Of a stretch of 64,000 bases of DNA, positions 36,001-39,000 are shown one piece after another. A program made the translations under genes and the position numbers. Every line of letters starts with the position of its first letter. The first letter of the stretch is position 1. The notes beneath the pieces were generated by a model. It had not been told where the DNA came from. It saw nothing but the letters and a program-made list of their open reading frames with translations, and made no database searches. Origin of the DNA: Perna viridis (Eukaryota); assembly GCA_037379345.1 (NCBI GenBank), contig CM074513.1, positions 18,972,001 to 19,036,000 on the forward strand, written 5' to 3'.

Positions 36001-39000
36001 ACCCGTCTCTTATCCCCAACTCCTCTTTTATCACTGAATGGAATTTGGTGTATTTTCACAGAATATTTATCTCATATTCAAATAGTTTAAGTCTTATTTT
36101 AATTTTTTTTATAACTTACGGTTTTAGGGATGGAAAGTTGAGTTTTCCTTTAGTGAGCTTTGCTCACATTTTCTAGTTTTTATGTAAGACATAGAGTTCC
36201 ACATATCATTGTCTTTCAGTTTGTTTCTATACTGTATTTTGTTTTTGTGACAATGAACTTGAAACCAGCACCTTAATTAACAAACAAATATTTTCAGGAT
36301 GTAGTACTACTACACTACTTGCCTGAGACTTTCATGAAACAAAGAGCTCAAGCCATTGCCAGGAAATCACTGAAACAACAAGGAATAGTAGGATTGAGTC
36401 AGGCTCCATGTCTGCAGGGACTTCTACAATATCTGCCTAATGTTTTACAGGATCAGTACTTACATGAAAAGGTAAGGGTAATTGCTAATTTTCACAGATT
36501 TTCTCCAGTGGACATACATGATGCAATCTTTTTGGCCGGGTAGCATTTGTGCAAATTGCCTTATAGAATGGTGATGTCGGTTTGATAGGCCGGTGGTGGG
36601 CTGGCGGGGAAAATATTTTTGTTACATTTTTCTCATCAACCGTAAATCACAGCCACTAGATATTTAGTTTGCAACTTCAGTATTGGGTCCCATATTGTGG
36701 AATGCAGTTTCAGTTCTGTTGCACTTCTCCTTCCTATTAAGGAACTTTATGGCAACCTGGCCATTTCTGTCTTTGACTTCTTTTTGAAAATGTGATACTA
36801 TGTGAAAATAATTTTTATCTGTATTTTTAGTCTACTGGGGAAAAAACAAAACTTAGTAATTGGACAAAATGGTTTTTACATTGTTCTACTATGATTATAA
36901 ACATACATCGAGTAGGGTAAATATGGCACTAAAATATACTAAGAACAAATACTTTTTATGACTTAGATTGATCTTTGTTGGTATACATATTTAGTGTTAT
37001 CATTTGTTTGAATCCAAATGAAGTGTCAATTTTCATTATTTAACAGAGTTTGAAAATCAAAGTTTAAAATTAATCAGGTTTTAAGGAGGTAGACCTTAGG
37101 TAAGGGACACAACTCTTACAAATAATTGAAATGTTTATATTCAGCATTTTACATCAATCTCATGTAAGCATCAAAGTAACTTTGATTGATTCCATTTTGT
37201 TTCAAATGAACGCTTGATGTGAAATGGATTATGATACAAACATATAACTGATTTCAAGAGTGATGTCCCTTACTTACCCTTGGTCTATCTCATTAAAAAG
37301 TTGATCACAAAAGAGCTAACTGCATTTTATTCATAGTACATTGTGGTATAAATCTGATTAATCTTTTTAAAAAAGGTTTATTTAAGAAGCTTTGGGTTTT
37401 GTACATGCAGGCAACAGTGGTATCAGGACAACAGCTAGTCCATAGTTGCTTCCTCCAATATCTAGCTGTATTAGCAGTTGGCTTGAACCTTGAAAAGGCT
37501 CTATGTTATACTCCAGTGCCGCCACACCACTGCCAAGGACAATCAGGTAAGCTAAACACCTTGTATCAGGAATTACCCCACCTCTGAAATTTTCAGCCAA
37601 TCCCTGTCCCGTATTAGCACTACATGAGGACCATGTATTTCTTATACACTGTCAATGTTTTATACCTTGTCAGTGCTTGAGTTATTGTTTTTTTCTGGAT
37701 ATCATTCAAAACAAATATGGAGACAAAATGTTTCACTCAAATGAAAATATTTTGTTGGTGTGTGTAGGTCATCAATGGGGTAAATTTGTTACATACTAAG
37801 TCATTCAATGACCATATGCCTTGCCAAGTATAAAATTAATTGGCCGAGGTAAATTCTATACCCAGTCACTAAATGACTATGTAACTAATATAACTGTGTG
37901 TCCATCCATCCACACATTACACAAAACACTTCAAAGGATTTTGAAAATTTTTTTTTTGGTACAATTTTTTTTTTTTGGTACAATATTTTTTTTTTTGGTA
38001 CAGTATTTGCCTTCATTTTGATTTTGTTTTGTTTTCCTAGTTTTTGTTATGGGAGACTGAAAAACTGGCTGTAAAAACTGAATAAGGTGTAGCAGATTAT
38101 GTGTTTTCAATTTTTTTGGTGTTTTGATGAAGATTAGTCCCAGAGAATTTGTCCTCTTCTGTTCAAGGGTTTAGAATTTCTTTCTTTGGTTGTCGAGAAT
38201 AAAGATACTGATAATCTTCAAGTTTTAATGTTTTAATGTAGGAATCTTTTTGTGTTATTTTTCTAGCAATCAAATTGAAACTGAGAAATGAAATACACTT
38301 ACTTGAAAGAAGGTCAATTTTAGATGGAAAACCTCAATTGCAGTTACAAAAACCAGTTATATAAAGAAGACTATTTGAAACAAACCCTTTATGGTTGGAT
38401 GGTTTTGATAAATTAAGAAAGCCAGTGATACCAATATTCAATTTTATAAAGAAAATGTAGAAAGAGTATAACTGTTACGATGGTTCACTGTGTGGCAGTA
38501 AATTGCTGATATTTTATCTTTAATTTTTTTTTGTAGACTTTGAAAGACTTGTACCAGAATGGCAGTGGCTGCTGTCTTTTTCTACAGCTTTGAAGTCTAC
38601 AGATGCTCTGACAAGGAGGACTTCATTCCCTGAGTCATTTAAGTTACTGAATAAGGAAATTAGTGACAGGAGACCTGAAATTCTGGTAGGTGTATATGAG
38701 TGTGTGTGTATATAATATTATTTTGATTGGAAATTTACTGAGATTTGCCTTGAATAATGCCTTGCTACACTAGGAGATTTGGAAAAGCCTGGAGTTGATG
38801 AGGAACCACAACAGGTTCTACTGAGGTATGATGATGCGTACCAGTACCAGAATATCTTTGGACCATTGGTGAAGTTATAGGCTGACTGATAAGAAGCTGA
38901 AGGAATCGCACACCCAGGATAATATAATAGTTAGATAGGATGTTGGTCTTAATAGGAAAAGGAACTTTTCTCCCAGATTCCACAAGTAACAACAGTGTTA

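Follow-up and report, generated by a model that had tools for sequence, protein, structure and literature searches.

A decayed partial copy of UPF1 coding sequence, lacking a parent intron, within an intron of HERC1

An intron of HERC1 carries a short, decayed copy of the organism's own UPF1 coding sequence, from which an intron of the parent gene is exactly absent. It was found in the window, that is, the whole 64-kb stretch of DNA that was analysed. Because the copy lacks the parent intron exactly, its template was very likely a spliced UPF1 mRNA or the cDNA of one, a case built on a single intron. The joining of such a cDNA piece into a double-strand break is, on balance, the probable route of its entry.

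Identity, setting and presence of the copy

The preliminary description, made from the letters of the window, had placed a UPF1 fragment at 38764..38962 on the HERC1 strand, and this was borne out by tblastn with the UPF1 protein of Mytilus coruscus (P0081), which gave 39/41 identical residues at 38764-38886 (frame 1) and 21/25 at 38888-38962 (frame 2), with a combined E of 1e-24 when the two pieces were joined. The extent at the DNA level (Table 1) follows from parent mRNA reads of run X21 (19% of the run was read), which align over the copied piece and run on into further UPF1 coding sequence at either end, and from a parent contig of run X12 (4,004 nt, organism B, taken to be RNA by guess), which covers the same span and continues likewise. 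Compared with the parent mRNA, the 201-nt copy is 96.5% identical and differs by seven substitutions, a 2-nt loss and two stops, and the divergence between copy and parent is 3.5% (95% interval 1.4-7.0%). Codons 38764-38877 share 35 of 38 residues with human UPF1 (2wjv, E 2.8e-17), and a Pfam search with this 38-residue piece of the copy returned no family. The readable peptide of the parent is the same as that of P0081, and the best-matching named full-length UPF1 proteins come from the bivalves Tegillarca, Mytilus and Mizuhopecten (97%), which makes a mussel-like bivalve the probable host. The copy corresponds to P0081 residues 262-328. With the Pfam limits on that protein placing the end of the CH domain at 259 and the start of the 1B domain at 311, it comprises the linker and the initial 18 residues of 1B; the earlier assignment to the segment between the two domains was thus right as to the linker and has to be extended into 1B. 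No second UPF1-like stretch was found in the 64-kb window, where all remaining tblastn matches had E >= 0.2.

Table 1. Coordinates of the UPF1-derived copy, its disabling changes and the surrounding HERC1 features in the window
Feature	Position	Strand	Evidence or remark
HERC1 exon upstream of the host intron	38537..38685	+	splice signals; X12 record 2 spliced to previous exon; X21 depth 2-6
Host HERC1 intron, 1,031 nt, GT...AG	38686..39716	+	
Decayed, spliced partial copy of own UPF1 coding sequence	38763..38963	+	alignment of parent mRNA reads (X21) and contig (X12)
Parent exon-exon junction, intron absent	38825..38826	+	phase 2, within the Arg codon before YDDAY
Premature stop TAG (Glu codon in parent)	38878..38880	+	
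2-nt loss relative to parent, frameshift	38886..38887	+	33/43 X21 reads; X2 and X12 parent contigs
Premature stop TAG (Trp codon in parent)	38936..38938	+	
Right flank, weakly similar (with gaps) to the codons that follow in the parent	38964..38990	+	p = 0.067 and 0.027 (two settings, uncorrected)
HERC1 exon downstream, start of RCC1-like domain	39717..39908	+	human HERC1 4o2w, E 3.9e-23

The stops at 38878 and 38936 and a 2-bp deletion near 38887 had been read beforehand, and they are indeed TAG codons and two bases missing behind 38886. Six of the seven substitutions alter a residue or create a stop, and the parent has the P0081 residue in each of the six, so these changes arose in the copy. 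Set against 157 non-synonymous and 41 synonymous sites, this share gives P = 0.55 under neutrality, a test of low power with so few changes; judged by its sequence, the copy likely decayed neutrally. The piece has neither promoter nor start, and it is interrupted by two stops and a frameshift. As in an RNA-derived (processed) pseudogene fragment, disabling mutations occur together with neutral-type decay, and a close copy (96.5%) stands beside an intact parent located elsewhere, whose contigs continue as UPF1.

The copy is in sense orientation relative to HERC1, 77 nt from the donor of the host intron. The distance of 78 nt given in the preliminary description, which runs from the donor GT at 38686 to the first codon of the copy, agrees with this. 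The host gene has a SPRY-like exon upstream and a HECT-like exon downstream, the match of the latter being below the curated cut-off, and a protein atlas comparison of the exon following the intron gave RCC1-like leads only. A search for homologues of one long HERC1 exon retained 0 of 5,395 candidates at E <= 0.001, and Rfam at gathering thresholds gave no match across the 64 kb.

The window also contains several other repeats. The host intron itself has, at 39224-39486, a MITE-like element of 263 nt that seems to have no connection with the UPF1 piece; its terminal inverted repeats are imperfect and 11 nt long, and ACTGC on either side gives an apparent target duplication of 5 nt. Two 464-nt copies (9114-9577 and 10162-10625), 585 nt apart and 99% identical, are both bounded by terminal inverted repeats some 19 nt long, with ends resembling TA/TTAA, and are probably a recent DNA-transposon family or a local hop. 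A repeat of about 400 nt occurs in three copies at 15208-16016 and 19966-20356, 77-85% alike, two of them in tandem, while one interspersed family with members 80-87% alike occupies HERC1 introns at 23263-23683, 27354-27558, 34601-34930 and 48333-48759. Minisatellites with units of 32, 73, 68 and 112 nt are present at 2596-3110, 40037-40252, 49669-49876 and 46325-46931, respectively, some with units 96-99% alike.

Independent sequencing data contain the same arrangement. In run X2 (study P2) the left junction is spanned at 38250-38804 and the right one at 38848-39190 by contigs identical to the window, and a 205-nt contig of run X13 (study P6; 38933-39137, depth 2.7) spans the right junction and has copy-specific bases. 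All or part of 38520-39180 was present in 20/24 listed runs (9 studies). The share of words present is 0.86-1.00, over the ceiling of 0.69 expected without the insert, in seven runs that represent four samples and three studies, one study (P1) being the possible source of the window; the shares in runs X14-X20 (0.19-0.22) are about the exon-only share of 0.19 and are no evidence. None of the runs that contain the stretch is recorded as RNA. An assembly chimera, which the preliminary description had named as a possible refutation, or contamination could be entertained because run X1, a possible source of the window, is a gut metagenome. However, both junctions and the copy-specific bases recur in the P2 contigs and the right junction in P6, and the word shares of the seven runs exceed the ceiling, so that the chance of such an artefact is practically negligible. 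Metagenome scans for the copy gave nothing, and those for the upstream HERC1 exon gave 591 pattern matches, none confirmed.

The outer-junction contigs of X2 have depths of 60.8 and 60.5 and those of the parent 61.1 and 68.5, consistent with a single, homozygous copy, with contig depth being a rough guide rather than a copy number and some contigs being dropped by the record filter. Joints skipping the insert, as an empty allele would give, were not listed in the four runs examined among the 24. The coverage hole of X12 at 38739-39011 carries no weight on absence of the insert. Between organisms A and B, the intron flanks show 0 substitutions in about 380 nt and one 3-nt gap. Because these flanks differ far less than copy and parent do, the insertion would probably predate the A/B split, if B is a separate species. 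The copy looks common or fixed.

The parent intron missing from the copy

Genomic parent contigs of X2 exit the copy behind 38828 in a donor-like manner and enter it before 38824 in an acceptor-like manner, with loose ends of at least 255 letters each. Read with the GT-AG rule, they place a parent intron of more than 250 bases, with GT and AG ends, between 38825 and 38826. The parent mRNA (X21) and the copy in the window are both continuous across this position, and the one intron spanned (1/1) is absent exactly. According to the preliminary description, a match running over an exon junction would indicate an RNA template, and this is what the parent junction at 38825|38826 provides.

The spliced form is also genomic. 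A 66-nt piece of X2 (38788-38853, depth 65) shows no differences from the window and includes the junction together with the copy's own base at 38818, which lies 7 nt from the junction and at which 61/61 mRNA reads have the other base. Because copy base and junction stand on one genomic piece of flank-like depth, the spliced form is assigned to the genome, the piece having 38 letters on one side of the junction and 28 on the right side, below the 31-letter bridging rule. The preliminary description had also proposed that UPF1 intron sequence in the flanks would indicate DNA capture, and no such sequence is there: beyond each end of the copy, the loose ends of the genomic (X2) contigs read the same as those of the mRNA, which places the two breakpoints within exons. 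From vertebrate gene structure, the informative junction had been expected at ESQ|TQD, where the X2 genomic contigs show no intron. The idea that the copied piece came from within one exon was overturned by the parent intron at 38825|38826.

In a search with the peptide of the downstream exon, the best 120 proteins were sorted by rule, the matches being mostly unnamed gene calls taken as exon ORFs: 56 break exactly at R|Y, 46 are continuous and 18 are too short upstream. Most of the breaking proteins retain Arg or Ser there, as expected from a phase-2 AG acceptor. Since they vary widely in sequence, these protein-level gene calls indirectly suggest that the R|Y intron position is old and widespread and not a recent gain. 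An intron older than the copy, again as seen through protein-level gene calls, is a further property of an RNA-derived pseudogene fragment found here. Among the UPF1 exon ORFs of this region, lineage-specific breaks occur before D/ENP, at R|Y, at ESQ|TQD and after KAN(D/E), and in P0154, P0162, P0207 and P0213 the R|Y intron is read in frame.

Junctions, route of entry and possible consequences

Neither AATAAA, ATTAAA nor a run of 6 A occurs in 38761-39230. For a target-site duplication of at least 5 nt, no common word abuts both junctions, the longest (6 nt) being 28 and 35 nt off, and no convincing inverted-repeat pair encloses the UPF1 piece; the preliminary description had likewise seen no poly(A), duplication or terminal inverted repeat. 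The 3' end of the copy is mid-exon, and the X12 transcript contig extends 3,303 nt farther 3' than the copied piece; no trace of UPF1 3' sequence or of a tail was found elsewhere in the intron or window (at the protein level for UPF1). Both flanks have flat depth in X2 and one contig each at 80% likeness, and no flank match longer than 30 nt exists elsewhere in the 64-kb window. The pieces common to parent and copy have a depth of 125-127 in X2, about twice that of the flanks. This agrees with the parent and a single copy, and it speaks against a carrier present in many copies. CTRR words are present at 39054 and 39204, and the stretch 38940-39060 folds no better than its shuffles (z -1.4).

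A 7-nt direct repeat is located at the left junction; 5.5-8% of control junctions have one, which is not significant, and the suggestion of junction repeats as a polymerase-theta signature was therefore dropped. At the right junction there is a low-complexity hairpin of 6-7 bp, which was removed by the complexity filter. The likeness of the right flank to the next codons of the parent (Table 1) may mark a priming stretch or may be chance, and that of the left flank is not significant (p = 0.23 and 0.35); the test used a back-translated P0081 profile instead of the parent bases and is hence blunt.

In the proposed sequence of events, spliced UPF1 mRNA would have been reverse-transcribed, the resulting cDNA piece would have been joined by end joining into a double-strand break in the HERC1 intron without a retrotransposon cut, and the inserted piece would then have decayed neutrally. 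Such a break patch, i.e., a class-2 templated insertion of the endonuclease-independent type, is the pattern that remains because the copy has an intact distant donor, about 200 nt of length, no LINE marks and no carrier flanks. Its 201 nt lie within the 73-414 bp range of experimental break patches. On these grounds we regard the break patch as, more likely than not, the route that operated, although an absent tail and target duplication could likewise be produced by later deletions. The reverse transcriptase was possibly a LINE-encoded enzyme or a cellular polymerase. According to one study, LINEs are the commonest bivalve retroposons, and the enzymes they encode abound and are transcribed in the gonads of these animals (PMC10294476).

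The abundance and gonad transcription of LINEs in that account also favour a trimmed LINE retrocopy, that is, a 5'-truncated, tailed sense insertion of at least 3.5 kb that later lost its 3' part, its tail and one duplication by deletion. The spliced junction fits this history equally well, and a sense polyadenylation signal in the intron of a long gene would presumably be harmful, so that a trimmed allele would be favoured. However, a second event removing at least 3.3 kb would be needed within about 3.5% divergence, no tail or UPF1 3' trace was found at the protein level in the intron or window, and no longer allele was seen in the four examined runs, which makes this history rather unlikely, if still conceivable. 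The weak likeness of the right flank would suit a germ-line scar of RNA-templated repair in trans, in which about 27 nt at the broken end in the HERC1 intron formed an imperfect pairing with UPF1 mRNA immediately 3' of the copied piece and primed reverse transcription. We hold this to be a doubtful, outside chance; if true, target homeology and not a retroelement tail would have picked the template, and if an empty allele kept the 38964-38990 likeness, a genome-wide count of scars of this type could serve as a natural measure of such repair in invertebrates.

Template switching by an LTR retrotransposon could also have captured an internal mRNA piece, with a flanking element that is short, rare or decayed; in the available text on such retrocopies they are partial, doubly truncated, tail-less and mostly within genes, as here (PMC5131818). 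Against this, LTR-element sequence on either side is the defining property of such retrocopies, and here the HERC1 donor is only 77 nt away from the copy; each flank is single-copy-like at 80% likeness in X2 and has no match of more than 30 nt elsewhere in the window. We consider template switching improbable. Capture of genomic UPF1 DNA, through break repair or a Helitron or Pack-TIR element, would require exact loss of the intron. Helitrons are reportedly discussed in an oyster genome paper, and both ends of the parent intron read AGGTA, a shared 5-mer through which the intron could have been removed. An exact deletion via AG|GT microhomology has been proposed, as the available part of the publication has it (PMC3020277). 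However, in a 461-nt stretch of the window the median number of direct 5-mer pairs spaced by 50 nt or more is 166, so that the splice pair would be expected in only about 1/170 unselected jumps or deletions. Moreover, no UPF1 intron sequence is present at either end, the flanks are non-repetitive and the right flank folds at z -1.4 against shuffles, and we rate DNA capture as quite improbable. Of the routes listed in the preliminary description, internal capture thus stands, the Helitron type, given there as an equal option, loses most of its support since the intron is absent and the flanks look single-copy in X2, and break repair is modestly favoured over a trimmed retrocopy.

No function is evident, and the choice of UPF1, the NMD helicase, as donor was most likely incidental. 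Being sense to UPF1 mRNA, the copy would not pair with it. The X21 reads over the piece have the parent bases at all seven sites (e.g., 63/63, 61/61, 36/37). The same run has depth 0 at 38698-38761 and no joints, a weak test of exonisation at a HERC1 exon depth of only 2-6. In X12, a HERC1 contig (record 2, 38535-38738) is spliced at the previous intron and runs into the insert-bearing one, and a second contig covers 39012-39190 of the same intron downstream of the insert. Both fit unspliced pre-mRNA, and, judging from this one low-depth run, the intron may be removed late. The co-transcription suggested earlier follows from position and strand and is backed by the X12 contig up to 38738, with no RNA seen over the copy itself.

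Co-option has also been considered, in which a donor-like site at 38826, recreated by the spliced junction, would add 140 nt to the HERC1 exon, bring in the stops and lead to UPF1-dependent decay. The site matches 6/9 of the donor consensus, compared with 7/9 for the native donor, reading through it would hit the stops, and HERC1 RNA in X12 is continuous from exon into intron. NMD would hide such a stop-containing transcript. However, eight GT sites in the intron reach 6/9, X21 has no depth over 38698-38761 and no joints at an exon depth of 2-6, the X12 coverage includes intron sequence 3' of the insert, as that of unspliced pre-mRNA would, and the substitutions are neutral-looking, which together make co-option very improbable.

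As a single locus the insert is of little weight, a neutral relic from a kind of event that was already described. It is a clean natural case in which sequence from an mRNA reached the germ line of an invertebrate with the usual marks of a retrocopy lacking, and its value lies in the exact splice junction, the young age (3.5% from the parent) and the unique flanks. Signs of homeology-primed repair in an empty allele, or an effect of the insert on HERC1 splicing, would add to its weight. No literature on such inserts in bivalves or on UPF1 retrocopies was found in a search that covered few subscription journals.

Comparison with known systems

DNA captured by Helitron or Pack-TIR elements keeps its introns, and the ends of these elements are a hairpin with CTRR or terminal inverted repeats. 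The UPF1 piece has lost the intron, and neither enclosing element ends nor repeated flanks were found around it. RNA-templated break repair with deletion of a whole intron resembles the present case in that spliced mRNA information appears in DNA at a break; in the described part of that work the process repairs the mRNA's own gene via long homology, whereas the UPF1 piece landed in an unrelated gene (PMC12065846). LTR-mediated retrocopies, as far as the available text of Tan et al. (2016) goes, are similarly partial, doubly truncated, without L1 hallmarks, intragenic and known from an invertebrate (PMC5131818). The copy is a doubly truncated mRNA piece of this sort, but its flanks have no LTR-element-like repeats (X2, 80% likeness), barring a rare element. 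Microsimilarity between element and mRNA at the switch points is a further mark of such retrocopies.

According to the accessible portion of Onozawa and Aplan (PMC5110952), a class-1 insertion or ordinary LINE retrocopy starts at a poly(A) tail and leaves a target duplication. Target-primed processed pseudogenes of this class (class-1 TSIP) share with the UPF1 piece the exact intron loss, the disabling mutations and the unlinked position. Unlike them, the copy is without 3' end, tail, signal or target duplication, and it ends mid-exon at least 3.3 kb before the transcript end. A canonical LINE retrocopy is inserted at a TTTT/A cut site and has a poly(A) of 10-40 nt, a signal 10-30 nt ahead of it and a target duplication of at least 5 nt; the last three marks are missing here. 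Endonuclease-independent LINE-1 insertion (Morrish et al. 2002, as cited in the available part of PMC5110952) is closer, since this reverse-transcribed sequence also lacks duplication and tail and is interpreted as patching an existing break, though the template here is a host mRNA and not the element.

The closest system is the class-2 TSI/TSIP, to which the copy likely belongs. In the accessible text of PMC5110952, these are short copies of a distant intact donor without target duplication, poly(A) or polyadenylation signal, all of which holds for the UPF1 piece. End-joining marks (microdeletion, microhomology, added bases) also belong to this class, and presence/absence polymorphism to the TSIP label; the proxies for such marks at the present junctions, namely the flank likeness and the 7-nt left repeat, were weak. 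Class-2 insertions are known from human cells and genomes, unlike the present insert, which has drifted by 3.5% and for which no polymorphism was seen. The likeness extends to size, with experimental break patches measuring 73-414 bp (median 191), and spliced cDNAs are among the reported TSIP templates (PMC5110952, in the same part).
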